Shown here in pieces: positions 7,535 through 53,964 of a stretch of DNA of 64,000 bases; position 1 is the first letter of the stretch, and each line of letters starts with the position of its first letter. The DNA is from a virus: the IMG/VR virus record IMGVR_UViG_3300021356_000002; one strand, written 5' to 3'. The position numbers and the translations under genes are program-made. The notes under the pieces were generated by a model. That model did no database searches. It was not told where the DNA came from and worked only from the letters and a program-made list of their open reading frames with translations.

Positions 7535-7564
7535 CGGTATTCCCAAGTAGTTTATAAGCCTTAC

Positions 7565-7578
7565 TATTTATATAAATA
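7565..7578. promoter_or_regulatory. back-to-back overlapping T4 late promoters (palindrome TATTTATATAAATA)
   Basis: TATAAATA on minus (7565-7572, towards gp3) and on plus (7571-7578, towards ORF 7651). Confidence 0.8.
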
Positions 7579-7650
7579 ATATCGACCGCACAAGGATAAA
7601 GCGTGAGTGATATGGCAGCTAGGAACGCCGGGGTCAAATGAGGAACTATT

Positions 7651-8034
7651 ATGTTCAAATACTTGTTCGCGTTAATCGCACTAACGCCGCTCACCGTGCT
7701 TAGTGCTACAGTTATTAACTACGATGATGGTTCAACATACACTCTTGAAGATAATCAAGAGATTTATATCAGCACGCCGAACAGTGCTTTGTTTAAGCGT
7801 TCTATTATGAAAAACAAAGACACTTTTTTTCGTGTTCAAGAGCCTTGGACAAAACGTGACTATGTACCAGATCCGGACGGAACTGATACTATGGTCGTAG
7901 GCTCTCATGAGTGGTGCAAAGCTTATGTACCGTGGCATGAAGGTCTAACTTTTGATATGATTGCATGGCAACGTTTCTGTGACACCGATAATGATGGTGA
8001 CTATGACGAAGACGATGATCGTTGGGATGAATAA
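7651..8034 (+). CDS. secreted hypothetical protein (signal peptide, Cys pair, DxDxDG acidic tail); paralogue of 8061-8405
   Basis: MFKYLFALIALTPLTVLSA signal peptide, GAGG SD, own late promoter and terminator. The only convincing plus-strand gene. Confidence 0.85.
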   Translation: MFKYLFALIALTPLTVLSATVINYDDGSTYTLEDNQEIYISTPNSALFKRSIMKNKDTFFRVQEPWTKRDYVPDPDGTDTMVVGSHEWCKAYVPWHEGLTFDMIAWQRFCDTDNDGDYDEDDDRWDE

Positions 8035-18484: not shown

Positions 18485-18827
18485 TCGATGGGCTAACATC
18501 AATCACCTTTTCATCTTCGCTTTGTTGCAACAAACGTTGCAGATCAGTAGTACTTCCTATAAAAACATTATTATTGGTAATTGCTTTAGGCTCTTCTTTT
18601 TCTTGCGTTATGTCTTTGGTCTTCTTATTTAGTTCCATCAATTTATCGTTGACATCTGAGATGTTTTTGATCATGTTCGACAGAACTTCAAAAGCTCTAG
18701 GATGTTCAGACTCACGAGCAACCTCAATCATCAGATCGAGTGATTCTCTTCCCTTATCAATCAACTCGTAATAAGTTGAGCGAGAATAATCGTAGTCCGA
18801 TTTAATATTAGGATCATCTTTTTTCAT
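18477..18827 (-). CDS. gp16: terminase small subunit
   Basis: DYDYSR, ARESEHPRAFEV, NNNVFIGSTTDLQRLL. Confidence 0.95.
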   Translation of the reverse strand: MKKDDPNIKSDYDYSRSTYYELIDKGRESLDLMIEVARESEHPRAFEVLSNMIKNISDVNDKLMELNKKTKDITQEKEEPKAITNNNVFIGSTTDLQRLLQQSEDEKVIDVSPSNE

Positions 18828-18840
18828 ACTACGGCCCTAT

Positions 18841-35305: not shown

Positions 35306-38300
35306 TCAACCCTCTAGTGCTAGAATGTATGGTGTTAAGATTGCGTACAACGATCTTTCGAACGTCTCGCCCTCGATTCGACCAGCCTGTCTACGAATCG
35401 TCAATTCGGAGCCGATTCTAAAGTCACCAAGTTGATCGGTACTTGTGAATACAACCAAGCCTTCGTTCGTTTCTGAATCGAAGATAACTTCTTTTGTTGC
35501 ATCAGGAATACCACCATTCTGAGGAATGGCAGTAAATGTGTTTGTGCCTGAACCCACATATTCGAACGTGTGGGACGATGACGTAATCACAGAACGTTGT
35601 CTAAACGCGACTCTCTGATTGCGTATCATGTCTTGGTTCAATGGTGGTTCAAACGTAAGATTGTATACACCAGGAGCAACTGAATCGACACCAAGAACCG
35701 TATAAAAATAGTTCTCAGAATCGAACTTCATTGCATCGCCATAGTTTGGCTTTCTATATGATCCGTATACGTTGAGCCAGTCTGAAGAGTCGAGGTTGGT
35801 AACCTCATTAACTTGAATTACATCATCAAACTTCAGATGATCAGAATCGAGTATGCCGTCATAAAGAATCGGACTACTACCAGATGCAACTAGACCTCTA
35901 TCACCGAAACTTGAGTTAGAGTTTGTGATCGAACATTGACCACCAGTTTCGGCTAAGATAGATGTTCCTGTCGAAATCGTAAAGATCGATACTAGCTGTG
36001 CGTAACCACGATTCAGTAGATACGTTCCAATACCAGCCGCGTTGTACTGAGTAAATGCGTCAGATACCATCGAACGCAGACCCCACGCTTTTGAACCATC
36101 GATCTTCATACCAACACCGTCTGTGGTGATAGAAGTACAGTTCTGCACGTAAGGTGACTGAATGATGAACGGACCTGCTCTTGCAGAATCAACATTTGGG
36201 TTAAACGCAACGCAAGCCGCACCACTTTGATGATCTTTAAACGTAATGTCTTTTAAGAAACAACCGCTCTTGACATAGAACAGATCGGAGTCTACGCTTC
36301 TAGGTCGAATCGTGGTCGTTCTTAAGTTATCACCAACGATAGCGACTTTCTCAGGCAACTGAATTGGATTGTTGATTACGTAATCGCCCGACTTCAGATA
36401 TACTACGATATCATTAGTAGCATTACCTCTTTGAACCGATTGCTCAATGATAAGAGGACGTTCGTCATTGATTGCTTTAATTGCCGTTCTAAGTTCAGCA
36501 CTTACGCCTCTAGCCGCTAAACTAGGCTCTTGAACTGAATCAAGCGCATCTAAGTCGCCGTCTTGAATAATAGTGATTAGATTGTCTAATAGATCGTTGG
36601 TAACCTGTGCTTCTGTTGCAGTCGAGTATTGACCACCATTACCAGTAGTGTCAGGACCAGGGAATGCACCAGGATAAGTTCCACCTGAGTACAGATTTGT
36701 AGACAGGCTGTTAGAAAGCAACTCGTCTACGATCTGCTTCAAGTGCTGATAGGTCGTAGCAGTAGCCACAACCTCTGGATCACCTGCACTGTCACCCAAC
36801 TGATTCGTACCAAACGAGTAGTATGCACGTTTGACGATATCAGTAGCAAAGTTACCACCGTATAGTACGTCAAACGTCAGACCATCGACGATAAAGCCAA
36901 CGTCTCTCTTACATCTTACTCGGTCATAAGTTGCAGGACCATTTTGATCAGACCATGCAATCGTGCCCGCTTTCAAATCGGCAGAATCAGCCAAGATCAA
37001 ATTGTAAGATGCAGTCGTTGTTCCGCTAATGCCTGTGAAATCTGGATAGACCAAATCTCTTAATACATTATCGTTATTCGCTTCTAATACTTCATTAATG
37101 ATTTCAATGAGGTCGTCAACACGTGCTTGCTCAGTTGAAGTTGTTACATACGTGTTTACGATATTTTTGAGTTCGTCGTATGCCGCAATCGTAGGCAATC
37201 TCTCTGAGTCACTACCCAACTGATTTACTGCGTTTGAGTAATAAGCATCTGCACTTCTACGCGACTGGTAGTTACCACCGTACAGTACATCGTGCGTTAG
37301 ACCATCTAGAATATAGTCAACGTCTCGCTCACACTTAGTAGTATCATACGTAAGATCGGGATATACACTGTCAAGGAACGCAATCGTAGAGGCGATAATC
37401 GCAGTTTTGTTTGATTGAATTGCTGTGGCAGCCGCTTGCTGATTTGCCGAAGATGCTGGTGCCGCAGGGAATGTAAGTGTGTCTCTGTTCTCAAGACCAT
37501 TTGCAAGAATATCATTGATCTCTGCAATACTAGCATTAATACTTACACGTGAATTCGAATCGATAGCCAGTTCACCGATCAATCGACCTAGTTCGTTGAT
37601 TGCGCCAACGGTACCATCTAACTGCTGTCCGATTACTTTCTGTGTTGATACTGTTGCTCTGTAATAAGAAGAACCCGCAACAACACTGTTAACGTTTGTG
37701 CCGAGCATCAAATCAAGAGTCACAGCATCAATGATAAAACCTGTGTCACGTGAACACAACGTACGATCATACGTTAATGCTGGGAAGTTTTCTGCAATGT
37801 ATTGTACAAGTTCAGCCTTCAAATATTCTCTGTTGTTCTGAAGAATGACTGCGGCATCATCTGCGTCTGTTGTAGGCAAGACAACTGGCACTGGATACTC
37901 AACCGAGTCAGCAAAATTTTCTGTACTCTGAGTGCCGTTGACGAAAATGTCAACAACTTCCGACCAGTGTCTATTATTTCTTTCTACTGCACCGTCATAA
38001 CCAGTGCTGAGTTTTACTTCAGGAATAGAGAAGATGGCGCCTTTCGCTTCGTTGAAGGCACCTCTCGTTGCAGAAATCTGTTCATCAAGAACTTTGTTGG
38101 CTCCCGCTCTTTGATACGAAAGACCAGATGTCACTGCGTTATAGTTTGTTCCGAAAGCAATATCGAACTGCAAGCCATCTAAGATCAGATTTAAGTCGCG
38201 TTCACAAGTTGCTTCGTCAAATTCGAATTCTTGGATATCAGTAATAACACTGACGGCTGAATCGATAGTTTGAAATGCATCGCCAAGGGAAGTACCCAAG

Positions 38301-39706: not shown

Positions 39707-40060
39707 TCATGTTACCGAAGGCGTTACTGTTATAAGTCCTTCAAGAACTCTTTCTACGATAGTGTTGGCATCGCTATCTTGATATGAGATTTCCATATCA
39801 TAGACATATTTTCTCTTACTATTTAGCGTATCTGTGACGGTGTTTGTCAAAGATAAGTTAACGATACCTGCGGTCGGAGGAACAGTGACATAAGCGTCGA
39901 ATGAAATTTTGTCAGAACTGTCAACATCATATCGCGTACTCATTTTAGCCGCGGCTGAATAGCCTGACAAATCTTTTGCCGAACCATCGATGTTCGTAAG
40001 ATACACGTCCAGGGAAACGTCTGTTCCCTGATCGATAGTTAATTCTTCATACCTTGCCAT
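39707..40060 (-). CDS. small virion structural protein (Ig-like adaptor)
   Basis: IDQGTD...DLSGY...LSLT...YVYDMEI...RVLEG..TVTPSVT pattern. Confidence 0.7.
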   Translation of the reverse strand: MARYEELTIDQGTDVSLDVYLTNIDGSAKDLSGYSAAAKMSTRYDVDSSDKISFDAYVTVPPTAGIVNLSLTNTVTDTLNSKRKYVYDMEISYQDSDANTIVERVLEGLITVTPSVT

Positions 40061-40093: not shown

Positions 40094-40101
40094 TATTTAT
40101 A
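40094..40101 (-). promoter_or_regulatory. T4 late promoter TATAAATA
   Basis: Exact match upstream of ORF 40060. Confidence 0.8.
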
Positions 40102-40106
40102 ATAAT

Positions 40107-40787
40107 TTAGGCGTGAATGTCTTCAATAATCCAATCTTGCATTCCTACAGCCATCTCTGATCTGTCGAGTACAAATGCAACTGTCATACGTAAACCTGTG
40201 TCCCCGTTCCGTGCTGTATGATATACCAGCTTCTCTTCAGGATCTTCGTATGCACCAAAGTAACCAACTTTACATTGCCAGCCTTTTTTATCAGGTATTG
40301 TTACCATTTCTTTCTTTTCATTGTCCCAGTGCTTCCACCAGCCGTCGCCAGTTTCGCTCCAAGTAAACACACAATTGAATGCTGAAGCATTCGCATTGTT
40401 GTGCCAAGAAATATATCCACCTGGCGGATAAACCGCAAATAGAGCATTACGTTTCAAATTGAACGTAGTTTGTATTTTTTGTAAAAACGCTTCCTGTTTT
40501 AGAGAGACTTCAGGAATTTTTGCTTGCGAAACTTTCTCTTTAGAGAAATGCATTTGTCCGATACCAAAGCCATGCGACACAACAACTTCTGGAAATCCAC
40601 CGTGACCCATACCTTGTGACTTAATAAGTTTAAAATATGCATCACCTGTATAATAGTCGGCGTCTTCTTTATTATGTTTGTCGGCTTTTGTCTTTACGAC
40701 AGCCTCGTAATTTTTATCTCTGGTAAACCAAAGTGCATCGTTCAAAATGTCGATAGCAAAATCGTTTAACGGTATGTCTCTCATCAA
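40107..40787 (-). CDS. putative 2OG-Fe(II) oxygenase / cupin-fold hydroxylase
   Basis: YPPGGYISWHNN...VYH...RMTVAF matches the H...H...RxS/T layout, with Asn in place of the usual Asp/Glu. Confidence 0.6.
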   Translation of the reverse strand: MMRDIPLNDFAIDILNDALWFTRDKNYEAVVKTKADKHNKEDADYYTGDAYFKLIKSQGMGHGGFPEVVVSHGFGIGQMHFSKEKVSQAKIPEVSLKQEAFLQKIQTTFNLKRNALFAVYPPGGYISWHNNANASAFNCVFTWSETGDGWWKHWDNEKKEMVTIPDKKGWQCKVGYFGAYEDPEEKLVYHTARNGDTGLRMTVAFVLDRSEMAVGMQDWIIEDIHA

Positions 40788-41521
40788 AACTCCATGTGCT
40801 TCGCTTCCGAAGCAGAATAATGTCTAATAACAACAGGCTTCTTGTTGTGAGCATATTTATAGCGCGAGAAATAGTTCCATCTGGCATCATCTTCAAAAAT
40901 GCCCACTTTCAAGTCTTGATACTTTGGCTCTTTGTTTACAAGCCACCAAAGAGAAAACTGATCCCATCGTGACAATGATTTAGGATGAGTTTCATAATCT
41001 GCTTCGCCTTTTTCATTTATTGGCCACCATGTACCAGCATACTGTCGTACAGTGAGATCATACCAATCGTCCATAAACTCACGTACCAATGGATTGCGCA
41101 TGTCATACAGACAGACTGCTCCGCATAGTTCGAACTGACCACCAGGCCATTTTAGTTCTGCATAACAGTAAGAGCGTTCTTCGGGCAGACCAGTGTACAT
41201 CACATCATAGCCATTCAGTTCGTCAAAGACATGTTCAATGTCTTCATGCTCGACCTCAGTGTCGGCGTCAATGTAAAATGTAATATCCCACGGTGATTTT
41301 GCCATACCCCAAAGCTTGGCTCGCTTGTGATCGTTGCAGAAAATTATTTCGTCTGCGAGTCTTCGTCCTCGATCATCAAGAAATCTTTCTTCGCAGACCA
41401 AACAAATATTTGCGTCAGGATAGAAATCCCGAATTGAGTCCATTAAATTACATGCAGAAGCATAAAAGAAACTTCGCCGTGACGCAACGATTACGTAACC
41501 TTTAGTTGGCTCCTGCGTCAT
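40784..41521 (-). CDS. putative GT-A fold glycosyltransferase
   Basis: KGYVIVAS, SPWDITFYIDADT (DxD), WDQFSLW, RWN, VIRHYS; GGAG SD before MTQEP. Confidence 0.78.
   Translation of the reverse strand: MTQEPTKGYVIVASRRSFFYASACNLMDSIRDFYPDANICLVCEERFLDDRGRRLADEIIFCNDHKRAKLWGMAKSPWDITFYIDADTEVEHEDIEHVFDELNGYDVMYTGLPEERSYCYAELKWPGGQFELCGAVCLYDMRNPLVREFMDDWYDLTVRQYAGTWWPINEKGEADYETHPKSLSRWDQFSLWWLVNKEPKYQDLKVGIFEDDARWNYFSRYKYAHNKKPVVIRHYSASEAKHMEF
40854..40861 (-). promoter_or_regulatory. possible internal late promoter TATAAATA upstream of the oxygenase
   Basis: Exact match inside the 3' end of the glycosyltransferase gene. Confidence 0.4.
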
Positions 41522-41978
41522 CTTTGTCTCCATAATAGCCCAATTCTTTCGCAATCAAAACTGCACATAGCGCATTCATTTCCACTGCACTTTGCGCTCG
41601 ACGGATTTTGCCACGTAATATACGATCTTCAGAATTTTTAATTTGCTCAATTTCAAAAGCCTGAAGTTTGAGATTAAAAAGTTGCTCTAGTTCAGCAGTC
41701 TTTTTCTTTTGCTCGTGATGTGCGCGTTTTTCTCTGTTCTCGCGCTCTTTTCGCTCTTTGCGTTCAGCGGTATTTTCGTCGATCTTTACGACACCAACTT
41801 TGTCAACCACTTCTTTATAATGAGGGCATTCAGAACCGTCCGGACGAATCTTGCGAAACTCCATTACGTCTTTTTTCTTACCCTTTTGACCTTCAAGCGT
41901 AGTTAGCCTAATACATTTTAGAACTGAGCGATCCTCCGTTTCCCAAAATGCATTATCTAAGTACTCATACTTTGCCAT
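41502..41978 (-). CDS. hypothetical protein (charged, helical; possible fibre assembly factor)
   Basis: GGAG SD; directly downstream of the giant repeat gene; overlaps the glycosyltransferase. Confidence 0.7.
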   Translation of the reverse strand: MAKYEYLDNAFWETEDRSVLKCIRLTTLEGQKGKKKDVMEFRKIRPDGSECPHYKEVVDKVGVVKIDENTAERKERKERENREKRAHHEQKKKTAELEQLFNLKLQAFEIEQIKNSEDRILRGKIRRAQSAVEMNALCAVLIAKELGYYGDKDDAGAN

Positions 41979-41993
41979 AATTTACTCCATATT

Positions 41994-44900
41994 TTAAGCA
42001 ACACGTACGTATAATGTATATGTCTCAATTGTTACCGGTGTTGATGTTAATTTAGCGTCATCCAAATATGCTTCTGCAATGTTAACTACCAAGTTGTAAT
42101 CAGATTCGTAACTAGAACCTTCGTATGGTGAACCGCCATAAACTTCTAAGTCGCCTGTGCCTTCAAACGCACCTATGTATTCTTCAGCATCATCGCCAGT
42201 AATATAAGTGCTGTAGTCTTGAGTCGATTCGAAATCGGAAGAGTAAGTCTCTACATATGCATCACCAGTATAACTGACTTCAATGTTTCTTGTATAGTCT
42301 AATGATATGTAGTCAACCGAAAACTCTTGGGAATACGATTGTTCAGTGTAGTTTGAAAGATACTCGCCAACATAATCTCCTGGTGCACCTTCATAGTCGG
42401 GCGTATAGTCACCAGTATAAACTGTTTCGTATGTCGGAGTATAGTTACCGATATATGCAGTAACATAAACGTCTTGTGCTATGTAGTCTTCAAGGTAATC
42501 AGACTCATAATCTTGTACATATGTTTCAACAAAATCACCAGTGTAGTCAACTTCATAATTGCCTGTGTACGTTACGATAAAGTCGCCTGTATACTGTCCT
42601 TCAAAATTAGAAAGGTAATCGCCTGAGTAATTCGCTTGATAGTTACCAGTGTAATCAGACAAGTAATCGCCAGTATACTGACCTTCAAATATTGATACAA
42701 AATCGCCTGTATACACAGATTGATAGTTACCGATATATGCTTTTACGTAATCGCCAACATATTGACCTTGGAAAATCTGTAAGAAGTCCCCAGTGTAAAT
42801 TGCGACATAATCGCCAGTATAGTCAGACTGATAATTGCCAGTATACTGACCTTCAAAGTCTTGTACGAAGTCTGCTTCATAAGTTTCTAAGAAGTTGCCA
42901 GTGTAGTTTACGTTAAAGTCGCCGACATACTGTCCTTCAAACGTAGCAAGAAAGTCGCCTGTATAGCCTGATGTATAATCGCCTGTGTACGTAGTTTCAT
43001 AGTTTCCTTCGTATTGGCCCGCAAACCCTTGCAAGAAATCGCCAGAGTAAACCGCAGTAAAATCACCAGTGTAGTCTTGCAAGAAGTTTCCAACATACTG
43101 ACCTTCAAACGTGGCAGTGAAGTTACCTTGATAATTTGATACGTAGTTACCAGAGTATTGTGCCTGAGCATATGTCGAAATATAATCACCAGTATAGATG
43201 TTGGTAAAGTCACCCGTGTAAACTTGAGTAAAGTCACCGCCATATACTTGATCAGCATAATTTCCTATGTAGTCACCAGTATATCGAGAAATATAATCGC
43301 CTTGATAATTACCAGTATATTGAACAGCAAAATTGCCAGTATAGTTCGATATGTAATCACCAGTATACTGTTGCGAAACAAAGTTGGCTGTAAAGTCGCC
43401 AGTGTAATCAGAGATATAATCGCCAGTATATGTTGTGACGAAGTTACCAGTGTAGTTTGCTTGAACGTATACTGTAGTATATGTGCCAGTATATGTTGCT
43501 AAAAAATCACCAACATATTGACCCTGGAAAGTCTGAGTAAAGTTTGACTGATACTGAGTGTTAAAATCAGCATTGTATGTCTGTAAGAAATCACCGACGT
43601 ACTGCCCTTGGAATGTGGCTGTGAAACTAGAAACATAGTTGCTGAGATAATTACCAGTATACTGTGCCGCAAAGTTACCAACATATTGTCCCTGGAACGT
43701 AGCAAGAAAATCACCAACATAGTTTCCAGTATAAGCCGCCGTAAAATCGCCAGCATATTGTGAGATATAGTTACCAGTGTATGGTGCAGTAAAGTTGCCG
43801 ACATATTGACCCTGGAAAGTCTGAGTAAAGTCGCCAGTATATTGTTGAGTAAACGTTGCGACATAACCTGATACGTAGTTACCTTGATACTGACCTTGGA
43901 AAGTCTGTAAGAAGTCGCCAACATACTGACCTTGGAACGTACCCAAGAAGTCTCCCACGTAATTCGATACGTAGTTACCCACATAGTTCGCATCAACAAA
44001 GGTCGCTAAGAAATTGCCTTGATAGGTTCCAGTGTAGTTACCCGTATATGTTCTTAAAAAGTTACCTGAGTAGTTTGCATCAACGAACGTCTGAGTGAAG
44101 TTGCCCGTGTATCGTGACACATAGTCTCCCGAGTAACTTGCAGTAAAGTTACCCGTATAGTTTGCATCAACGAACGTCTGGGTAAACGAACTGGTATACG
44201 ATTGATTAATTGTTCTTGTATACTGACCAGTATAGTTACCAGTATAGTTCGCATCAACGAATGTTATGTTGACAGCAGAAACGTAACTACCAACGTACGA
44301 CTGTTGAATCGAGCCAACATAGGTTTGCTGAATCGAGCCAACATATGTTCCTGTATAAGTGCCGCCGCCACCAGTATATCCGCCAGTGTATGTTAATCCA
44401 GTTAAAAGGAATCTTCTTCGAACTTCATAATATCGATAGGTCCCGCTGAAGCTGCCAGTGCCGAATCGGAAATTACCTCTATCATATTCATAGCCTCCTC
44501 GAACAACCGGAGTTGTCAATCCAGGTTCGGTCAGTGCGTAAATGGTGCTAGCCCAACGAAGCTGGTTATTACTTTCTATTCCGCTATTTCGAGGCTGAAA
44601 AGTCCGCCAGTAATATTGAGGAGAACTAAAAGTGAAGAAATACGCTGAATAGGCACCTGGACCAACGTAGCCGCCTTGATAAGAGGTTGCGGCACTTGCA
44701 TAACCACCAAGATAGTTTCCGACATATGTGCCAGTGTAGTTACCGACATATGTGCCTGTGTAAGTCCCTTGATAATTTGCAGAAAACGAACCCGTATACT
44801 GCCCTTGGAACGTAGCGGCAAATGAACCTGTATAACTTTGGTTGATTGTTCTTGTATACTGACCAGTATAGTTACCAACATACTGTCCCTGGAATGTGGC

Positions 44901-47900
44901 TAAGAAGTCGCCCAAATAAGCCTGAATAAAGTTGCCATCATAGTTGGCTAAGAAATCACCAACGTACTGACCCTGGAATGTTCCTAAGAAGTCACCAGTA
45001 TATCGAGCAACAAAGCTACCAGCGTATCCAGATACGTAATCGCCTTGATACTGACCTTGGAACGTAGCAGTAAAGTCGCCTGAGTAAGTTGCTAAAAAGT
45101 TACCAGTATAGTTCGCGTCAACGAACGTCTGTAAGAAGTTGCCTGTATAGTTCGCTTGTGCGTAATTCGAAATGTAATCACCAGCATATGTTACGTTACG
45201 ACCTCCAGTATATTGAGCCGTAAAGTTGCCCACATAGTTCGCATCAACGAACGTTGTAACAAAGTCACCGGTATAACGGGCAAGAAAATCGCCAGAATAT
45301 TGTGCGAGGAAGTTACCAGTGTAAGCCGCACGAATATAATCCGAAGCATAATTACCAGTGTAGTTTGCATCAACGAATGTAGTTAGAAAATCGCCTTGAT
45401 AGTTTGCGGTAAAGTCGCCAGTGTAAGTAGCGGCAAAGTTACCAGTATAGTTGGCTTGCACATAAAGCGAAACGTAGTTACCAGTATATGCCTGCAAGAA
45501 ATTACTCTCGTATTGCGAGATGTAATCGCCTGTATAGTTAGCAGAAATAAATGTGTTTACAAAGTTACCAGTGTACGGCTCTTCGTAAACAGTAACGTAC
45601 TGCCCTTGGAATGTCTGAACAAAATCACCGACATAATTCGAAGTGTAGTTACCAGCGTACGTCGAAAGATAGTTACCAGTGTACTGACCTTCAAACGCTT
45701 GAGTGAAGTTGCCTGAATAAGTAACTAAGAAGTCACCAGTATAGGTAGCTGTGACGTAATTTGATACGTAGTTACCGTCATAGTTGACTTGATAATTGCC
45801 CTGATACTGACCCTCGAAGCCTTGAATGAAATTACCAGTATAATTCTGCGTAAAGTTACCAGTGTATTGAGACTGATAGTTACCTTGATACTGTCCTTCG
45901 AACGTTGCAATAAAGTCGCCAGAATAACTTACAATGAAGTCACCGGTGTATTGTGCTTGAGCGTAGTTTTGTGTAAAGTCGCCAGAGTATTGAGACTGAT
46001 AATTTCCTGTATAGTCAGAAATATAGTTACCGGTGTAAGTCTGTTGCTCATAGGTACCAATATAATCGCCAGAATAGTCTGACTGATAGTTACCCTGATA
46101 TTGAGACTGATAGTTACCAGTGTACTGCGCTTGAGCATAAGTCTCAGTGAAATTGCCAGTATAGATGTCAGTAAAGTCACCGGTATACTGTTCTATGAAA
46201 TTACCACCGTAGACTAGCTGAATATAAGTTTCTAAGAAGTCGCCTGTATAGGGCACTTGATATTCAGAAGCGTATTGTGACTGGTAATTACCAGTATAAT
46301 TTTCTTGTGCGTAAGTGACTGTGTAAGACGTTGAATATGCCTGAAGAAAATCACCCGTATAGGGCTGAGTAAAGTTACCAGCATACTCTGTCTGAATATA
46401 GTTGACAGTAAAATTGCCTTCGTAATTTTCTGTGTAGTCACCAGTGTACACATCGATGTAATTGCCAGTATAGACATCATCGATATAATTCTCTGTAAAG
46501 TTACCGCTGTAGTCGATAACATAATCACCGACATATAGCTCAGTGAAGTTACCTGTATATTCTTCTTCAACATAAGCGGCAACGTAGTTACCAGTGTAGA
46601 TAACTGGCGCATCACCATACAATTCAGCATAGTCTGCGGCATACACTTCAAGCGTATCATCCGCTTCGTAGATAGTTGTATACTGCTCTTCGACTGTAAG
46701 ACCAGAATAGTTAGGAATATATTCTCCTTCGTAACCGCTCTCATAGGATTGTGCGTACGTAAGAAGATAATCACCTATGTAACTTTGTGCGTAGTCGCCG
46801 CTAAACGTACCAATGTACGTAGCCTCATAATCACCAGTATAGGAAGATGAATACGTAGCACCGTATTCGCCAACATAGTTCGATTCATATGTGTCTACGT
46901 AATTTCCGATATAGTCAGGAACATAAGACCCTTGATACTGTGAAGTGTAATTGACATCATACGAATCAACTGAGACATAAGCAGTCTCAGATTCGTATGT
47001 CAAGTTGGTATCAATCGCAGAACCACGTGCTTCCCAAGTTCCCGGAGCAGTCGGTGGACCATCAGCAGAAGATCGAAGTTGATATTTACCAATGCCAGTG
47101 TCTTGAATGACTTGCTTCATTCGCTCGCCGAAGGTCATCTCAACTTCAGCATCACCAAGATGCTTGATTCCTTCAAACTTGTTAGTCACTGCTTGACGTA
47201 AAGGCGAAATGGGCTTAACTACTGCTGGAACAGTTGAGTCTGTCTTAACCCAGATAGAATATGTTACAAGAGATCCATCGCCTCGAGTGTCTTCGAATAC
47301 GTCTGCGATAAACTCTGACCACTGTGCGCCTGGAGATACTGTAGCAAGTCGATACTGACCAGGATAATCGTTCGAAAATATTTTTAAAAGAAGTCGTTGT
47401 ACTACAACGTCGAGTTCTGCATCGCTCATTTCTTTCAAGCCAGCAGGCGTTGCAGTTCTATCCCAGTAAAGTGGATTCTTTTTCAGATCACTGTCGTTGT
47501 CAATTATTGCTACAGCCGTATCGTTCTGATATAACTCATACAGAGTGGCAGAAGTAGTTGGCTTCAACTGTGGCTCTACACGCACAGAGGTTAGTACCTC
47601 AGCATCGCTCGCACCAGCAACACTATTTTGCAGATCAGTAGTAGAACCGTTGATAGTAAAGTTGATTACGCCATCGTCAGTGATGGGAACAGTCCACGTG
47701 ACTTCATAAGAGCCAGTGAGATTGCCATCAGGATAATTTTCCCACGAAACAGAACGACCGTTTGAAGTTGTGTGAGTCGCAGTAGGCGTTGTCGATGTTG
47801 TAATCGTGCCTATTGCCGCAGAACCCGAAATACCCAACTGATATTCGATTTCTTCAAATCCAACACCAGTATTTGTTGCGGTGCCTTGGAGCGTTAGTTC

Positions 47901-48230
47901 AATGGTGTCGCCAACATAGACAACACTAGGCAATGGCGTATAAGAACCAATGGTAACTGTATGCGTTGATCCTGCTGGATCAGATGCGTGAGTAATCGTA
48001 AATGTTCGACTAGTCGTAGTGCCAGGAATAGGACCTATACCAGATGTATAAAAAGTGTCTTCAAACGTGCCAACAAGTTCGGCTGCCGCGTTCGTAGAGA
48101 GCGCAGACAAATCACTTGTTGTCATTTTACTTAAATGAACACCCGCTCGATAAGCCAGATAATCTTCTTCAGAAGTCAGTAGCTCTTTGAACGCACCTTC
48201 ATTTAAGTGTTTGAGAGGACGATAAGACAT
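41994..48230 (-). CDS. giant (2078 aa) mirror-registered YxG-repeat fibre protein
   Basis: ~420-aa N-terminal base, two ~770-aa tetrapeptide arms, central ~85-aa non-repetitive domain; own late promoter. Confidence 0.85.
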   Translation of the reverse strand: MSYRPLKHLNEGAFKELLTSEEDYLAYRAGVHLSKMTTSDLSALSTNAAAELVGTFEDTFYTSGIGPIPGTTTSRTFTITHASDPAGSTHTVTIGSYTPLPSVVYVGDTIELTLQGTATNTGVGFEEIEYQLGISGSAAIGTITTSTTPTATHTTSNGRSVSWENYPDGNLTGSYEVTWTVPITDDGVINFTINGSTTDLQNSVAGASDAEVLTSVRVEPQLKPTTSATLYELYQNDTAVAIIDNDSDLKKNPLYWDRTATPAGLKEMSDAELDVVVQRLLLKIFSNDYPGQYRLATVSPGAQWSEFIADVFEDTRGDGSLVTYSIWVKTDSTVPAVVKPISPLRQAVTNKFEGIKHLGDAEVEMTFGERMKQVIQDTGIGKYQLRSSADGPPTAPGTWEARGSAIDTNLTYESETAYVSVDSYDVNYTSQYQGSYVPDYIGNYVDTYESNYVGEYGATYSSSYTGDYEATYIGTFSGDYAQSYIGDYLLTYAQSYESGYEGEYIPNYSGLTVEEQYTTIYEADDTLEVYAADYAELYGDAPVIYTGNYVAAYVEEEYTGNFTELYVGDYVIDYSGNFTENYIDDVYTGNYIDVYTGDYTENYEGNFTVNYIQTEYAGNFTQPYTGDFLQAYSTSYTVTYAQENYTGNYQSQYASEYQVPYTGDFLETYIQLVYGGNFIEQYTGDFTDIYTGNFTETYAQAQYTGNYQSQYQGNYQSDYSGDYIGTYEQQTYTGNYISDYTGNYQSQYSGDFTQNYAQAQYTGDFIVSYSGDFIATFEGQYQGNYQSQYTGNFTQNYTGNFIQGFEGQYQGNYQVNYDGNYVSNYVTATYTGDFLVTYSGNFTQAFEGQYTGNYLSTYAGNYTSNYVGDFVQTFQGQYVTVYEEPYTGNFVNTFISANYTGDYISQYESNFLQAYTGNYVSLYVQANYTGNFAATYTGDFTANYQGDFLTTFVDANYTGNYASDYIRAAYTGNFLAQYSGDFLARYTGDFVTTFVDANYVGNFTAQYTGGRNVTYAGDYISNYAQANYTGNFLQTFVDANYTGNFLATYSGDFTATFQGQYQGDYVSGYAGSFVARYTGDFLGTFQGQYVGDFLANYDGNFIQAYLGDFLATFQGQYVGNYTGQYTRTINQSYTGSFAATFQGQYTGSFSANYQGTYTGTYVGNYTGTYVGNYLGGYASAATSYQGGYVGPGAYSAYFFTFSSPQYYWRTFQPRNSGIESNNQLRWASTIYALTEPGLTTPVVRGGYEYDRGNFRFGTGSFSGTYRYYEVRRRFLLTGLTYTGGYTGGGGTYTGTYVGSIQQTYVGSIQQSYVGSYVSAVNITFVDANYTGNYTGQYTRTINQSYTSSFTQTFVDANYTGNFTASYSGDYVSRYTGNFTQTFVDANYSGNFLRTYTGNYTGTYQGNFLATFVDANYVGNYVSNYVGDFLGTFQGQYVGDFLQTFQGQYQGNYVSGYVATFTQQYTGDFTQTFQGQYVGNFTAPYTGNYISQYAGDFTAAYTGNYVGDFLATFQGQYVGNFAAQYTGNYLSNYVSSFTATFQGQYVGDFLQTYNADFNTQYQSNFTQTFQGQYVGDFLATYTGTYTTVYVQANYTGNFVTTYTGDYISDYTGDFTANFVSQQYTGDYISNYTGNFAVQYTGNYQGDYISRYTGDYIGNYADQVYGGDFTQVYTGDFTNIYTGDYISTYAQAQYSGNYVSNYQGNFTATFEGQYVGNFLQDYTGDFTAVYSGDFLQGFAGQYEGNYETTYTGDYTSGYTGDFLATFEGQYVGDFNVNYTGNFLETYEADFVQDFEGQYTGNYQSDYTGDYVAIYTGDFLQIFQGQYVGDYVKAYIGNYQSVYTGDFVSIFEGQYTGDYLSDYTGNYQANYSGDYLSNFEGQYTGDFIVTYTGNYEVDYTGDFVETYVQDYESDYLEDYIAQDVYVTAYIGNYTPTYETVYTGDYTPDYEGAPGDYVGEYLSNYTEQSYSQEFSVDYISLDYTRNIEVSYTGDAYVETYSSDFESTQDYSTYITGDDAEEYIGAFEGTGDLEVYGGSPYEGSSYESDYNLVVNIAEAYLDDAKLTSTPVTIETYTLYVRVA
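42060..46980 (-). repeat. coding tetrapeptide repeat region (Y/F-x-G-N/D alternating with Y/F-x-x-x), interrupted at ~44400-44660
   Basis: Degenerate 12-nt periodicity (for example gttaccagtgta, gtcgccagtata) throughout. Confidence 0.95.
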
Positions 48231-48262
48231 TAATTTTCCGACAGCACAAAAACAATTATTCT

Positions 48263-48496
48263 TTATTTATAAGATTTGTGGATCAAGTGATTCAGCATAC
48301 TTTTTATTTCATCCAGATCCTTTTCGATAGTCTCTACCTTTTGTTCAAGTGATTGTTTTTGGGCTTTTTCAAGTTTACGGAGGCGTTTGCGCTCTCTGGC
48401 TTGTTCGATCTCCTCAGCATTGGTGTTAATCAATGCGTTGGTTTTCATGTCACGAACTAAGCCAGAGTGCCCCTTGACAGGTACATATCTGCTCAT
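48263..48496 (-). CDS. small conserved coiled-coil protein
   Basis: VKGHSGLVRD..TNALIN motif, typically found after the VrlC-like gene in marine T4-like phages. Confidence 0.75.
   Translation of the reverse strand: MSRYVPVKGHSGLVRDMKTNALINTNAEEIEQARERKRLRKLEKAQKQSLEQKVETIEKDLDEIKSMLNHLIHKSYK
48264..48271 (-). promoter_or_regulatory. T4 late promoter TATAAATA for the giant-fibre unit
   Basis: Exact match 33 nt upstream of the 48230 ATG. Confidence 0.8.
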
Positions 48497-51400
48497 TATA
48501 CTGCCAGATATCTGTATCTCAGATTCTTAATTGATGGTGCTCTGTCTCCACCAATAAACACGAACTTAAACTGTGCTTGCTGAAAAGGCTTCAGATCACC
48601 ACCGAGACCACCTGGTAGCCACTGAGCATCACGATAAACTTGAGAATTGTCAAACGGAATATTGTCAACAGGTTCTTGATATATCCAGTACTTATCGTTG
48701 ATGTTTTCATCACCGCCAGCAGTTCTGAAATACATTTGGATATCAGCGTCATTAGGAATGTTTACTAATCCTCTGACTTCTATACCCACAGCGTCCAAAT
48801 CGAGGAATACAGGAGTTGTAATATGTTTCGAACCCGTTGTTCCTGAAGTAGGACTTGTTTCGTCTACAGGCAGAATTGCAGGCGTGACAGATGGATCGTC
48901 AAGCTTGAATCCAGCGAGCGTAATAGAAGCCCTCTGCATGTCAACAATTGGAGAAACATAGTCATTGGCAGTCTTCATGTCAAGCTTTACGTAAACTGAA
49001 GCAACACCAGCACCCAGATTTGCTTCTTCTGCCGCTAAGTTGTAGATCGCTTTTGGTGTATCAAAATCAATGTTTTGCATCAAAGTGATTCTAGAATAAT
49101 CAGCGTCTTGAGTCCATCTCTGAGCCTTAGTGATGCGTGTACTCGACAACATCTTGCCTTCTGTCCACTTAGCACCAGCATCGATTGATGTAAAGTTTGG
49201 TACTACAGTTTCAACCGTAGGCATTGCTGTGTTGAAAATTGCATTTCGTCTTGATAGTGTCCAGTGACTAGAACCAAGTCCAGAAGACGTTTCTACTGGA
49301 TGGGCAGCGTCATATGTGAACGAATAACCGTTAACGTCAGCAGAGTCAACCGTGTGTGCGCCTTCAATATAACTTATAATATCAGAACTGCTAGTAAAGA
49401 CACCAGAACCATCAATTCTATCTGCAAATCCACCAGGACCGATTCCAGAAGTTGCAACACTATCGAGACGACAGAGATCGCCAGGCTCTAGACCATGATT
49501 AGCATGATGAATGTAAATCTTTCTAGAACCAGCAAACGTCTGAATGTTGGGTTTATTCGCTTCTTTTGTAGGATCAACTTCGCCAATCAACTTCGGAGGT
49601 AACGGCACATTCTTAAGAATTAGACTACCGCCACCAAGATCGAACTTCGCACGATTTAGTTTGTACATCAAATCTTGATCTTTTGCTTCGATCCAAGACA
49701 AGCCGTTTTGAGGCAAGTAAAGAGAGCCTGGAGCATTTTGCGTAGATGTAATACGTGACGTAGATCCAAACACAGGCAGTAACGTCTTCGAACTAAACAG
49801 TTCATATTCGGTTGACTGAGAAGTAACTACAATCGCATATGATGTCCAAGGCTTCAGATATACTGGCTCATCAAATGTAAACGTTGTTGGTCGTGCTTGA
49901 ATAACCGAAAGCACTGGATCTGTACCAACTACTTGTACATCACTTGCTTTCAAAACAACTTGCGAATCAGGAACAATCTCATTGTGCGCAGGCTTGCCAT
50001 TGATTACAGGACGTAAGTGGATTTGTACTGGTAGATTACCAGCGTCTTTTGCTCTGAAGTAGAGTTGCAAACTTGTCAGTGTAACACCGAACTGATTGTC
50101 AACAAAGAAGGTCTGAGCCATAGGATTCTGTGGCGCAGTCAACACATTCGTTTCTGTTCCTGCAAACTGATTCTGATCTACATCGATGTAATCAGAAAGA
50201 ATCTGCGACATCTGACCATTCGCGTCAAGTCCTGTTAGAGCGGCACCAGATAGCGCGGCAGTGGCAGGTCCATACAAGCCAGAGAATCTAGGATCCACGA
50301 GATTTACAGCAGAAGACCGTATCTGATCCAGTGTATCTCTAAGTTCTTTTGGACTGTAAATCTGTGCCCAGTGAACCCAATACGACAACGGCCACCAGTA
50401 ACCCCAAGGTCTTGAAGTGATCATATTGTGCCAGTGATGCCAAATCGCACCAACTGCGGCATAATATGCAAAGCACTTACTATCAGCGTTGCCCCAATCA
50501 TTACGTGACGTGTCAAGCAATTTAAATTCGCGAATACCTGTTTTAAAGCAAATGTTCGGAGAGTTTGCTTGTGTTTCTCGATCGGTCGCTCTAGTATTCC
50601 AACGCCTCGCAGTGTTCGGAATCCAAAGAGAACCAATGATTTCTCCGTTAGCGTCAGAAATTAGATCAGTAGAGCCATCGGGATGTTCAGTCTGCCAGTA
50701 CGGGTCTTGTGGATCTGTTTGATCAGTTCGATCAGACCATCGTAAAAATGCTGGCTCTTCACGCACAAAACTAGCCATGTTGTCGCCGTCAAAGAAAGCG
50801 TAGTGTTTGGTGTTTGGCTTAAGACCCTTTGCGTGAAAGAAAATCTTTCTGGAACGCAACCAAGGAATCAACGCAACGTCGATGATACGATTACCAACAG
50901 CTTGTCGTAGTGTTTCAGATGGAACAACGCGAGAAACGAATCGACCTCCAAATCGCGTAAACGAACTTCTGCCAGAGAAGTAACGTTCTCTTAACTCGAC
51001 CAATCTACGGCGACGAATTCCAATAATTGACGTTTCTCTTTCGTAGTATGGATTCCATTGTTCAAGGTCTTCAGCACTTCTGCCTGCCCAGTTCCATACC
51101 CAGTTGTTCCACAGATATGCTTGTCTACGGTCGAGACGACCTTGACCAGGCACTGCTCGATCAGCACGAGCTGGATCTTTCCATTCATCACTCGTGGGTG
51201 AAAGCTTTAGTGTTCCCACGTTATCGACCAAGCCAAATGGATTGATTTTAACTGAAGTAGACGCAAGGTCTTGAACCGCCCATGCTTCTGAGTCATGAGT
51301 CAGATAAACATTGTCACCTTTCTTTACAATGCCACTAGACTGTGTGTTATCAACAACCAAACGAATGTTGTTTTCGTCGAACATAGGACGAATCAGTTTG

Positions 51401-53964
51401 CTTTCAGGATCCAAAGATGCTGAGTAGTCTGGATTGTTGGTATCTGCTCCCGTTTGATCGTTATTATCATCGCAAAGATTACCACATTCCGTTCTTGCAT
51501 TGCCAGCACTGTCGAGCGCGGCAAACAGTTTTTGTTCAAGCTCGAGGAGACTGAGTTCTGTGTATTCTTGCAGATCATCTATCTTCGCTTCGAGTTTGGC
51601 AATATCTGCCATCGTATAACGTCGATGCTCGATTGGTGTGATTCGACAATCATCAAAGCCATGCATGTTGCCGTTGACCAAAACCTTTGCAAGTTCTAAC
51701 GTATTGTCTGGCGTTGGCTTGTACTGCGGATTGCCTGCAGGCTGACCCATCAGTACTTGAACTTCACCCTCTTGCGTCAGAAGAATTTTGTCTGCTCGTG
51801 GCAGCCAGTAACTGACTGTGGCTGTTACACTTGATCCGTTTCGTGGCAAATCAAACGTACTAAAGGGTGATCCTTCGTCAGGTCTAAAATCAAGATAGTT
51901 CTTAGGATTAATTACGGTACCGTCTTGTTGAATCTGATCTAAAGTACCACCAAAATTATTGCCTAAGACAAGAGATTCTGGATACGAAGTTGCATCAAAG
52001 AAGTCGCCGCCAGCACCACGCGCATAATAGTCATAATAAACATTTAATGTTGTGGGAACACTATCATAATCGCTATTTAAGATTAATCTACTTTTAGCAT
52101 AATAGTTGTCACGTACGCCACAATCTAATCTAACGTCACCAGTCATATCACGACCGTTAATGTTATTGACGTTTACTTCGCGAACTTCGTTGACATCAAC
52201 GTAAGGAAACTCGTAGTAATACTGCCTAGCCGCTGAATCGTATGCTACAGTCAGCTTGCCGTTGTTAACTGTGGTTAACGTTTTGGATTTTCTCGTAGCA
52301 GTTTTCTGAACATAGCAGAGAACTTCGTAAGTGCTGGATGGAGTTAGACCCGAAATTGTAACGTCACGTCCACTGTTAGTGGGCGTTCCGACTGTATGTG
52401 CTTCAGCAGAGGCTGAACTTGTTGATACGACCCAAAGAGTAGTGTCTGTATATGATGAGCCAGTCGGAAGTGTAGCAAGAGTAATTTCTCCGCTACCGTT
52501 TGCTACGAGTCCGCTTTGATGTTGCTGTATCGTAATTGTAATATCAGAGAACGACTCGGGTCGAGGACGTGACAGAGGGAACAACAGATTATTATTATCA
52601 ACTGTTCCGTTAAGAGTCGCACCTTGAGTGCCTTGCGTTATATTGAAAACATCAGACGAGCCAGAGCCGATACTTTTAATGCTTCTTAGTGAGCTGGCTG
52701 AATCGACGCGAACATCATACACATAGACACGATAATTTGCACCATCTTCTTCGACAGCACGAATTCTTGCAGTGCCTAACGAAGATCCACCAGCCTGAAA
52801 ATCGTCATATAGATTGACTTGTGCATGATCCAGATCAGGTAGACCACGATTACTGTCTGCTAAGAAGTAATTACCATAACTGATCGGAATGACATCATTA
52901 TCGACAGTCTCAGTTACTAGTGGCTTAGGAACACTCAAACGAGTAGCAGTTGCTCTTTCGACACGATAACCATTGACATATGCCATACCTGGTGATACAA
53001 TCACATCGAAATTAGAATCCCTTGCACTGAAAGTTCTTTCGTCTACACTTACTCTGAATGGATCGACGATGTAGTTACCAGACTCTTCGAACGTTCTTTG
53101 TGCAATTAGATCGTTGATCGTGTTGTATGCATCAATCTCTTTGACTTGCTCAACGATCTTTGAATTTTCGATATTAGCCACAAACACGAATGTGTCATTA
53201 GCAGTTACTTTACTCAATTCGGTAAGTTGCAGATTGATTCTAAGACGATCAGCACCAGGTGAAGCCGTGTTAACAATACCATTTGCGTTGTCGAACAAAG
53301 AAGTGTCATCATTGACAGTGACAACTTCTTGAACAACCTTAAATCCTACAGTCGTAGTCGCAGAGGCTGTATATGGAGACAGAATAATAGACTGTTCAGT
53401 TGTGTGAACAAAGTGACCTAAAACAAAGAAGTCTCCTTCGCCCAAAGTAAATCTAACGCCCTTACCAGTCGCATTAGGAGTTTCAGTAGTAATCTGATAA
53501 CCACCACCAGACTGATCAAACAAAACTACTCCATCATCAAACTTCTCATTTGCACCCGCGCCAGAATTTACATACTGGACATAAAGAGTATCAAGAACAA
53601 AACCTTCATCAACGTTTCTAGGCTTTAAGTCGATTACTTTCGCTTCAACACCTGTGTTGGTGTCTTTGAATATGGTACCAATAGGAATATCAGTAAACGC
53701 ACCGCCAGCATTTACAGCCGAGACTTTGATATAGTCAATACTTGCATCAACAGCCATGCCTCCAGTATTGACCGCGGCACCTTCTTTGAAAACGTTTTTA
53801 CCAAATCTAGCAAGTTCTTGAAAGATGATTGTCTGTAGTTGCGTCAACTCTCGCGCTTGTAGAGCGCGTCCGTTGTTAAAGAGGACTTGATGAAAATTGT
53901 TATCCTCATTAAAATCATCTGAATAAATGCCAGATAGCGTATTGGATGTGAATTCTGTTGCCAT
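48496..53964 (-). CDS. large baseplate-associated structural protein (VrlC/DUF4815-like)
   Basis: YSDDF...VLFNNGRALQARELTQLQT, PGADRL, RTFEESGNY, RRYTMADIAKLE, NPMAQTF. Confidence 0.85.
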   Translation of the reverse strand: MATEFTSNTLSGIYSDDFNEDNNFHQVLFNNGRALQARELTQLQTIIFQELARFGKNVFKEGAAVNTGGMAVDASIDYIKVSAVNAGGAFTDIPIGTIFKDTNTGVEAKVIDLKPRNVDEGFVLDTLYVQYVNSGAGANEKFDDGVVLFDQSGGGYQITTETPNATGKGVRFTLGEGDFFVLGHFVHTTEQSIILSPYTASATTTVGFKVVQEVVTVNDDTSLFDNANGIVNTASPGADRLRINLQLTELSKVTANDTFVFVANIENSKIVEQVKEIDAYNTINDLIAQRTFEESGNYIVDPFRVSVDERTFSARDSNFDVIVSPGMAYVNGYRVERATATRLSVPKPLVTETVDNDVIPISYGNYFLADSNRGLPDLDHAQVNLYDDFQAGGSSLGTARIRAVEEDGANYRVYVYDVRVDSASSLRSIKSIGSGSSDVFNITQGTQGATLNGTVDNNNLLFPLSRPRPESFSDITITIQQHQSGLVANGSGEITLATLPTGSSYTDTTLWVVSTSSASAEAHTVGTPTNSGRDVTISGLTPSSTYEVLCYVQKTATRKSKTLTTVNNGKLTVAYDSAARQYYYEFPYVDVNEVREVNVNNINGRDMTGDVRLDCGVRDNYYAKSRLILNSDYDSVPTTLNVYYDYYARGAGGDFFDATSYPESLVLGNNFGGTLDQIQQDGTVINPKNYLDFRPDEGSPFSTFDLPRNGSSVTATVSYWLPRADKILLTQEGEVQVLMGQPAGNPQYKPTPDNTLELAKVLVNGNMHGFDDCRITPIEHRRYTMADIAKLEAKIDDLQEYTELSLLELEQKLFAALDSAGNARTECGNLCDDNNDQTGADTNNPDYSASLDPESKLIRPMFDENNIRLVVDNTQSSGIVKKGDNVYLTHDSEAWAVQDLASTSVKINPFGLVDNVGTLKLSPTSDEWKDPARADRAVPGQGRLDRRQAYLWNNWVWNWAGRSAEDLEQWNPYYERETSIIGIRRRRLVELRERYFSGRSSFTRFGGRFVSRVVPSETLRQAVGNRIIDVALIPWLRSRKIFFHAKGLKPNTKHYAFFDGDNMASFVREEPAFLRWSDRTDQTDPQDPYWQTEHPDGSTDLISDANGEIIGSLWIPNTARRWNTRATDRETQANSPNICFKTGIREFKLLDTSRNDWGNADSKCFAYYAAVGAIWHHWHNMITSRPWGYWWPLSYWVHWAQIYSPKELRDTLDQIRSSAVNLVDPRFSGLYGPATAALSGAALTGLDANGQMSQILSDYIDVDQNQFAGTETNVLTAPQNPMAQTFFVDNQFGVTLTSLQLYFRAKDAGNLPVQIHLRPVINGKPAHNEIVPDSQVVLKASDVQVVGTDPVLSVIQARPTTFTFDEPVYLKPWTSYAIVVTSQSTEYELFSSKTLLPVFGSTSRITSTQNAPGSLYLPQNGLSWIEAKDQDLMYKLNRAKFDLGGGSLILKNVPLPPKLIGEVDPTKEANKPNIQTFAGSRKIYIHHANHGLEPGDLCRLDSVATSGIGPGGFADRIDGSGVFTSSSDIISYIEGAHTVDSADVNGYSFTYDAAHPVETSSGLGSSHWTLSRRNAIFNTAMPTVETVVPNFTSIDAGAKWTEGKMLSSTRITKAQRWTQDADYSRITLMQNIDFDTPKAIYNLAAEEANLGAGVASVYVKLDMKTANDYVSPIVDMQRASITLAGFKLDDPSVTPAILPVDETSPTSGTTGSKHITTPVFLDLDAVGIEVRGLVNIPNDADIQMYFRTAGGDENINDKYWIYQEPVDNIPFDNSQVYRDAQWLPGGLGGDLKPFQQAQFKFVFIGGDRAPSIKNLRYRYLAV

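Follow-up and report, generated by a model that had tools for sequence, protein, structure and literature searches.

In mycobacteriophages, glycosyltransferase genes adjoin structural genes. The glycosyltransferases of marine T4-like phages are usually taken as modifiers of the host surface or of DNA, and glycosylation of phage-particle proteins has so far been documented mainly in actinobacteriophages. Virion glycosylation in actinobacteriophages was reported by Freeman et al. 2023 (cited in PMC12801897), and Mimivirus L230, together with a collagen glucosyltransferase, provides a viral hydroxylase and glycosyltransferase for fibre-like proteins (PMC5802723, PMC9546862). In both systems, virus-encoded enzymes act on surface proteins of the virus itself. 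This is also the role proposed here for a cassette of genes in an uncultured marine T4-like phage, although the described systems act on collagen lysine or on capsid and tail-tube proteins and involve other enzyme families and other hosts. The cassette lies in the 64,000-nt stretch of IMG/VR record IMGVR_UViG_3300021356_000002 (the window), which is the structural module of this phage and carries nearly all its genes on the minus strand. A gene for a giant repeat protein is followed there by genes for a 158-aa protein (p158), a glycosyltransferase (GT) and a 225-aa oxygenase-like protein (Oxy), all read on the minus strand, and then by a gene for a 117-aa protein (p117) (Table 1).

The host recognition cluster of pelagimyophages and cyanomyophages resembles the window in two ways. 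It lies after a large baseplate-region gene (VrlC) and before gp13/gp14, and its fibre genes are mixed with GT8-type glycosyltransferases (PMC7029224). The paper describes the cluster as a variable island, proposes that it modifies the host O-chain, and mentions neither oxygenases nor a conserved four-gene cassette (PMC7029224). The block described here is strictly conserved, though the region is called hypervariable in the literature (PMC7029224). Glycosyltransferases among fibre genes and virion glycosylation in other phages are thus known from published work. Literature searches turned up no protein-decoration system of this kind in a T4-like phage, and neither the conserved cassette nor the His-x-Asn family to which Oxy belongs was found in them.

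The three genes behind the giant gene are tentatively read as a late cassette for the cytoplasmic decoration of the giant fibre protein or of neighbouring fibres. A fibre-linked late cassette is well supported; its modified target we infer. This reading is favoured because block order, promoter edges, gene coupling and fibre adjacency are conserved, and because the fold matches of GT and Oxy include protein-directed enzymes. The link to the fibre follows from the repeat protein upstream, from a giant-like insertion in one related locus (L063) and from the co-occurrence of the genes in phage C48C1.

Scanning IMG/VR with the GT alignment gave 301 loci, and the best 80 of the 301 (GT identity 53–91%) were analysed. 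Together with one further contig they form 81 related loci, of which subsets of 76 loci, or of 64 or 48 distinct loci, were scored, depending on the test. The order p158-GT-Oxy-p117 is kept in every locus that extends far enough, with two cases of inserted genes: L063 encodes, between GT and Oxy, an 872-aa protein whose N-terminus is giant-like, and L051 has a 641-aa gene before p117. The start of GT overlaps the end of p158 by 4–26 nt in 48 of 48 distinct loci, and Oxy either overlaps the end of GT or starts no more than 8 nt from it in 42 of 48. In 60 of 64 distinct loci, the T4-type late promoter motif TATAAATA follows Oxy at a distance of 1–61 nt, and no copy lies between the end of the fibre gene and GT in any of the 64. 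Directly 5' of p158, about 70 of 76 loci encode a large, Tyr-rich protein in which the octad motif is repeated tens to hundreds of times. A 70-kb contig binned with a Microbacteriaceae metagenome-assembled genome carries the same block after two shorter giant-like proteins. Among GenBank phages (50,697 records), GT, Oxy and the N-terminal domain of the giant protein occur only in C48C1, in the same order as in the window; the cassette genes were not found in cultured pelagiphages, Melnitz or cyanophages. An earlier note on this DNA had proposed to check the synteny of the four genes across marine T4-like genomes. The synteny holds in the 81 loci, and the relatives support the four genes as a conserved, promoter-bounded late block.

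One locus shows an addition to the cassette. In the divergent lineage L099 (CBFHZN010000007.1, positions 5458–5973, plus strand), a canonical PF13640 2-oxoglutarate (2OG)-Fe(II) oxygenase of 172 aa separates GT from Oxy. Its score of 48.8 bits exceeds the cut-off of 27, it carries H-x-D...H...R-x-S, and its start overlaps the GT stop. Such an oxygenase is absent from the window and the other 80 loci, and a search for related loci with the L099 protein gave none. The insertion indicates that true oxygenase chemistry is compatible with the cassette and has been recruited into it.

In the window, TATAAATA occurs 12 times, compared with 2.4 ± 1.6 copies expected, and none of 100 shuffles reaches 12. 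The coding (minus) strand carries 11 of the 12 copies, and 9 of these 11 sit 20–70 nt 5' of a gene start. Judged from the sequence, transcription can start at the putative late promoter 5' of the giant gene. The gap between the giant gene and p158 is just 15 nt and contains a GGAG, the GT gene overlaps the p158 gene by 20 nt, and the Oxy gene overlaps the GT gene by 1 nt (TGATG). Because of this overlapping or abutting arrangement, joint production of p158, GT and Oxy is probable. The promoter-fibre-p158-GT-oxygenase order with its coordinates, the overlaps among the last three genes and the next late promoter after the oxygenase gene had all been described in the earlier note, and each was recovered from the motif count and the positions of the open reading frames (ORFs). 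A further TATAAATA within the GT gene is possibly a secondary promoter or a by-product of coding. It was rejected as a conserved promoter, being kept in just 9–10 of 64 distinct relatives, all of them close.

GT had no match in Pfam (window protein, E ≤ 0.1), in PHROGs or in a profile search of PDB sequences, and its more than 300 metagenomic homologue clusters are all unannotated. The folds of GT and Oxy were predicted from alignments of 35 and 36 homologues, respectively. The GT model (pLDDT 95.3) consists of a single Rossmann-like GT-A domain. Foldseek returned at least 500 matches at E ≤ 1e-3, and among the matches listed all were GT-A enzymes. Glycogenin is the most similar (Z 17.5, rmsd 3.5, 193 aligned residues spanning residues 4–245), followed by Skp1 Gat1 (Z 15.4) and by UGGT, LgtC and GlyE (Z 14.5–15.0; LgtC 14.7). 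All five share the GT-A fold with GT over nearly its whole length (185–213 residues aligned).

The DxD motif of GT (D85-A-D87) is invariant in the 35 homologues and stands directly after the fourth beta-strand (80–84). H234 is also invariant and is located in the last predicted strand (232–234). In the model, the position of the DxD after the fourth strand is that of retaining GT8 and GT24 enzymes, and the C-terminal His would fit their Asp-x-Asp...His manganese site. In sequence GT is unlike these families. It has no Pfam GT8 or GT24 match, and identity to the matched structures is 12–17%. Membership in GT8 (PF01501) was not recovered in any of the 35 GT members at E ≤ 5, and 17 of the 35 gave weak matches to GT2 (PF00535; best E 6.5e-4). 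By its model, GT is a GT-A, DxD glycosyltransferase with glycogenin as the most similar enzyme, an assignment that is firm for the fold class only. The label "DxD glycosyltransferase" given to it earlier is thus upheld by the predicted fold and the invariant DxD, though Pfam is silent. A predicted complex of GT and Oxy reached run scores of 0.00, 0.43 and 0.00 against a mark of 0.32 and weighs neither way. One GT homologue at 58% identity (P0092; JGI metagenome, 427 aa) carries a fused SAM methyltransferase domain at its N-terminus (PF13489, E 7.3e-9), a fusion that hints at glycan tailoring.

LgtC is a lipo-oligosaccharide GT8 enzyme, and its similarity to the GT model fits another explanation, in which GT and Oxy alter the host lipopolysaccharide, O-chain or capsule late in infection. 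This could block superinfection or keep progeny off cell debris, and the proximity to the fibre could reflect receptor co-evolution. Oxygenases of the 2-oxoglutarate type that act on lipopolysaccharide exist, namely LpxO and KdoO. GT8 is the commonest glycosyltransferase family of pelagimyophages and is often found in the host recognition cluster, where O-chain modification is favoured (PMC7029224). Envelope remodelling is nonetheless unlikely here, as strict conservation of the block contrasts with the variability of surface-modification islands, and as putative late promoters and translational coupling tie the genes to p158 behind the fibre gene. In addition, no membrane segments were found in the cassette proteins, and the top fold matches are protein-directed, by small margins.

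Oxy likewise had no match in Pfam or PHROGs and nothing relevant in a profile search of PDB sequences, and its more than 300 metagenomic homologue clusters are all unannotated. The model (pLDDT 92.9) is a double-stranded beta-helix with eight core strands. Its best matches are the prolyl 4-hydroxylase (P4H)/PHD oxygenases DdPhyA (Z 10.4), P. putida P4H (10.2), vCPH of the chlorella virus PBCV-1 (9.8) and PHD2 (9.5), which stand above the background of Z 7–8 in this structure comparison. The next matches, at Z 9.2–7.5, are FTO, AlkB homologues, TET, AspH (8.2) and sugar or nucleoside oxygenases. The P4H/PHD enzymes share with Oxy the beta-helix core and an N-terminal helical part, with 146–158 residues aligned. 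The comparison of predicted folds, which had been proposed together with the synteny check, therefore gave a glycogenin-like GT-A domain for GT and a prolyl-hydroxylase-like double-stranded beta-helix for Oxy.

In the Oxy model, H128-x-N130 stands at the end of strand 124–129, H189 in strand 188–192 and R199-x-T at the start of strand 199–206. We take the positions of H128, H189 and R199 to be the usual iron and 2-oxoglutarate ligand places of the fold. The spacing His128...61...His189...10...Arg-x-Thr compares with H313...61...H374...9...R383 in PHD2. Oxy differs from the P4H/PHD enzymes in having an invariant Asn at the place of the metal-binding Asp and additional invariant Asp165 and Trp169 residues, and in the absence of a Pfam 2OG match. 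The substrates would also differ, since the repeats of the likely Oxy target are nearly free of proline.

These features are kept across a large family. HMMER searching of 1.84 billion representatives with Oxy gave 462 clusters (50% identity) at E ≤ 1e-3. In 130 full-length representatives, Y119, W127, H128, N130, D165 and W169 are invariant, while position 189 is His in 126 of 126 ungapped sequences, position 199 is Arg in 126 of 127 and position 201 is Thr or Ser in 123 of 127. Asn130 is present in all 130 representatives and in all paralogues, so the family does not show the His-x-Asp/Glu...His triad. The 2-oxoglutarate-binding basic residue of the eighth strand (Arg/Lys-x-Ser/Thr) does appear to be present in Oxy, as read from the sequence. 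Some family members fall below 30% identity, and neither Oxy nor 24 distant members matched Pfam 2OG families (PF13640, PF03171, PF05118 and others) at E ≤ 1. In a protein atlas, Oxy fell into its own viral clusters only, with sub-threshold leads to 2OG-FeII_Oxy_3 (0.88) and Asp_Arg_Hydrox (0.87). Searches with single distant members gave 0 and 3 poor related loci. Longer, fused forms of Oxy were looked for and not found, a negative that carries little weight. Oxy is a distinct, sizeable family with a His-x-Asn...His...Arg signature, and the member described here adjoins GT. Of the earlier label "2OG-Fe(II) oxygenase-like", the fold stands, whereas the metal motif does not, as His-x-Asn replaces His-x-Asp and Pfam is silent.

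The invariant His-x-Asn and the missing Pfam 2OG matches are also what would be expected if Oxy were non-catalytic. It would then be a pseudo-enzyme or binding module, such as a substrate adaptor of GT or a fibre assembly factor, and only GT would be catalytic. This possibility, which overlaps with fibre decoration, is rather improbable. The fold includes non-catalytic domains, and the C-terminal domain of Ofd1 matches Oxy at Z 8.3. The L099 lineage adds a canonical oxygenase beside Oxy, as if the activity were otherwise missing. On the other hand, both His residues and Arg-x-Thr/Ser are kept across members with less than 30% identity, which is hard to explain without cofactor binding. In AspH, the position of the missing ligand is occupied by Gly and not by Asn. 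Human AspH, an active protein hydroxylase, manages with two His and no carboxylate as ligands (PMC13168262), and thus a missing carboxylate need not mean inactivity. AspH is a protein hydroxylase of the same superfamily as Oxy, which it matches at Z 8.2, and it hydroxylates Asp or Asn before an aromatic residue in repeated domains; each octad of the fibre carries G-[DN]-[FY]. It is unlike Oxy in possessing a TPR domain and recognizing disulphide-defined EGF folds, and in fold it matches Oxy less well than the prolyl hydroxylases do.

Sugar- and nucleoside-acting enzymes also come close to the protein hydroxylases in the list of Oxy matches, with PolD at Z 8.9, AviO1 at 8.2, PasI at 7.8 and EvdO2 at 7.5. 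Oxy might oxidize the donor sugar or the transferred sugar, and the pair would then build a modified sugar on the target of GT. The methyltransferase fused to the GT homologue P0092 is a typical glycan-tailoring partner, and genes for a nucleotide-sugar epimerase and a UDP-glucose dehydrogenase are present in C48C1. Protein hydroxylases remain the best matches of Oxy, and Oxy paralogues without an adjoining GT exist, so sugar tailoring is considered improbable.

The giant protein is rich in Tyr (13.8%), Thr (12.8%) and Gly (11.4%), and Lys, Arg, His, Met and Pro are very scarce. Several glycogenin-type relatives of GT act on proteins or protein-linked glycans, and glycogenin itself glucosylates Tyr. 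The protein is organized into an N-terminal domain (about residues 1–430), two arms separated by a central non-repeat part (about 1170–1310) and a C-terminal domain. Both arms are built of octad Y-x-G-[DN]-[FY]-x-x-x repeats, and 145 [YF]xG[DNSQ][YF] motifs were counted, mostly spaced by 8 residues. No Pfam or PHROG match was found for the whole protein or for its N-terminal, central and C-terminal parts alone. In relatives (loci L003–L082), the repeat protein ranges from about 500 to more than 3,180 aa and is sometimes split into two ORFs; this range could come from repeat expansion or from assembly collapse in metagenomes. In locus L057, a 498-aa Peptidase_S74 protein of the type found in self-cleaving tail fibres or spikes is encoded between the repeat protein and p158 (6279–7775).

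The composition of the arms bears on the chemistry that the cassette could carry out. Over their roughly 1,400 residues the arms have just 7 Pro and 1 Lys; the N-terminal domain holds most of the Pro and Lys of the protein. Therefore, a collagen-type or Skp1-type hydroxylate-then-glycosylate reaction cannot be the main modification of the arms, and the precedent of collagen hydroxylysine and Skp1 hydroxyproline, which the earlier note had drawn on, does not extend to them. Tyr, Thr and Ser already have hydroxyls, so GT requires no preceding hydroxylation. The reported richness in N-x-S/T is real, with 46 sites in the giant protein compared with 25 ± 4.4 in shuffles, but it is weak as an argument for glycosylation. 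It is a by-product of the repeat, as 18 of the 46 sites are the repeat consensus G-N-[FY]-T. Known bacterial N-glycosyltransferases are GT-C or GT41 enzymes. N-linked glycosylation at N-x-S/T was therefore rejected as the basis of the model, because the repeat explains the excess and the enzyme class is unsuitable.

Under the fibre-decoration reading, GT would move a sugar from a nucleotide sugar onto Tyr, Thr or Ser hydroxyls of the repeat arms before assembly. Oxy would be catalytically active with Fe(II) and 2-oxoglutarate and, like AspH, have a two-His centre. Its target would be a side chain other than Pro or Lys, and the Asp/Asn of each repeat is one candidate; alternatively, Oxy may tailor the attached sugar. 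A more specific version is doubtful, namely that this is the first T4-like virion glycosylation, in which a glycogenin-like GT acts on a Tyr/Thr ladder alongside a new two-His-plus-Asn oxygenase that hydroxylates a repeat residue other than Pro or Lys, for instance Asp or Asn, and that the resulting sugar-coated fibre is widespread in uncultured marine myophages.

Several points weigh against fibre decoration. GT8-type enzymes commonly build lipopolysaccharide. T4-like structural modules are expected to be fairly stable in gene order anyway. Octad motifs are scarce or absent in the upstream protein of loci L051 and L043, and two or three genes separate the repeat protein from p158 in L057 and L076, one of which encodes an endosialidase-chaperone domain typical of fibres. 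No terminator closing the block was found, so the "transcription unit" is bounded by promoters only and read-through beyond the block is probable. The change from Asp to Asn could mean that iron binding was lost. The arms do not offer the Pro/Lys-rich substrate of hydroxylate-then-glycosylate pathways, and hence the best fold matches of Oxy, which are prolyl hydroxylases, indicate no obvious target. GT-free Oxy paralogues stand in replication-module settings, both in C48C1 and in 2 of the 5 near-complete relatives searched, and the family is therefore not intrinsically fibre-bound. Finally, Zaragoza-Solas et al. 2020, the one paper that treats this genome region, read the GT8 genes of the pelagimyophage host recognition cluster as host O-chain modifiers (PMC7029224).

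The paralogues also touch on DNA hypermodification, in which bases of the phage DNA would be hydroxylated and then glycosylated. One C48C1 paralogue lies in the replication module, and nucleic-acid oxygenases share the fold of Oxy (NgTET1 Z 9.0, ALKBH7 Z 9.2). The cassette itself is late and lies within the structural module, and its GT is GT-A and glycogenin-like, unlike the T4 DNA glucosyltransferases, which are GT-B. None of the 81 loci has a gene of nucleotide metabolism next to the cassette, and hypermodification of DNA is highly improbable. The preference for fibre or virion decoration over DNA hypermodification in the earlier note is thus maintained on the strength of the fibre-linked late block, while its arguments from Pro/Lys-type chemistry and N-x-S/T sites are not.

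With a conserved late fibre-linked cassette of GT and Oxy, the idea that abundant ocean phages decorate their own host-recognition apparatus becomes concrete and testable. If it takes place, decoration could influence adsorption, stickiness, stability and grazing. An active Oxy family would widen the range of metal centres in 2-oxoglutarate oxygenases, and an inactive one would be a widespread phage pseudo-enzyme. C48C1 is the one sequenced GenBank phage with the whole cassette, and experiments are possible if it is in culture.

Table 1. Features of the block and its flanking genes in the window
Feature	Position	Strand	Remarks
TATAAATA, T4-type late promoter motif	48264..48271	-	33 nt before giant-gene ATG (48230); overlaps stop of 77-aa gene
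Giant Tyr/Thr/Gly-rich protein, 2078 aa, presumed virion fibre	41994..48230	-	
p158, 158 aa	41502..41978	-	GT start overlaps p158 end
GT-A glycosyltransferase (GT), 245 aa	40784..41521	-	ATG at 41521 agrees with homologue N-termini
Oxy, 225 aa, double-stranded beta-helix, prolyl-4-hydroxylase fold class	40107..40784	-	
Internal TATAAATA within GT gene (codons Tyr-Lys-Tyr)	40854..40861	-	70 nt 5' of Oxy start
Next TATAAATA, downstream block edge	40094..40101	-	5 nt past Oxy stop; 33 nt before 117-aa gene
p117, 117 aa, resembles family annotated L-shaped tail fibre assembly protein	39707..40060	-	phrog_1084 E 5.9e-19; phrog_3304 E 4e-12
77-aa virion structural protein, directly 5' of giant gene	48263..48496	-	phrog_473 E 1.3e-19
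1822-aa baseplate-region protein	48496..53964	-	phrog_358/877; VrlC position

The p158 protein begins with a small N-terminal part and ends with a short C-terminal one; the long stretch between them is highly charged and, judged by eye, helical. It had no Pfam or PHROG match, and the atlas gave just sub-threshold leads to XkdW and DUF4376. A partnership with GT is as conceivable for p158 as a role as chaperone or assembly factor of the fibre.

Upstream of the block, genes match gp5, gp25, gp6 and another baseplate wedge subunit, and downstream lie tail-fibre proteins followed by matches to gp13, gp14 and gp15, the gp names being taken from the position in the T4 order. Further downstream are the sheath, tube and portal genes according to T4 gene order and the major capsid protein, which was confirmed by a match. 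From its position, we infer the 1822-aa protein to be the VrlC counterpart. In a comparison of major capsid proteins, phage C48C1 is the closest GenBank record (67% identity), followed by the Methylophilales phages Melnitz, pelagimyophages and cyanomyophages (57–62%). The genes of the block, including GT and Oxy, have GC content and GC at third codon positions (GC3) like those of neighbouring genes, and recent horizontal acquisition of the cassette was rejected on this ground. The major capsid gene (8538–9896) has a GC content of 0.52 and a GC3 of 0.49, compared with a window average of 0.43.

A literature search on C48C1 (OQ984149.1) found no phage paper. Its genome encodes three copies of Oxy, one of which adjoins GT. 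The second (18267–18920) is flanked by UvsY and a gene annotated "tail tube", and the third (40130–40804) follows a DnaB-like helicase and has a NifU-like Fe-S assembly gene next to it. Copy numbers in five near-complete relatives are 1, 2, 1, 1 and 3. All six genomes searched in full have the GT-adjacent copy, as does every GT locus long enough to show it, and the other copies are optional. The epimerase and UDP-glucose dehydrogenase genes of C48C1 (35326–37226; L086) lie next to the primase and are possible suppliers of donor sugars.

Between positions 39500 and 48700 of the window, 16 terminator-like hairpins were counted, compared with 4.8 ± 2.4 in shuffles. About half of them are inside the repeat-rich giant gene and are perhaps a side effect of the repeats. 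At 7565–7578, two copies of TATAAATA overlap on opposite strands and may form a divergent pair of late promoters. The sole plus-strand copy faces 7651–8034 (127 aa), the only sizeable plus-strand ORF that is free of minus-strand overlap.

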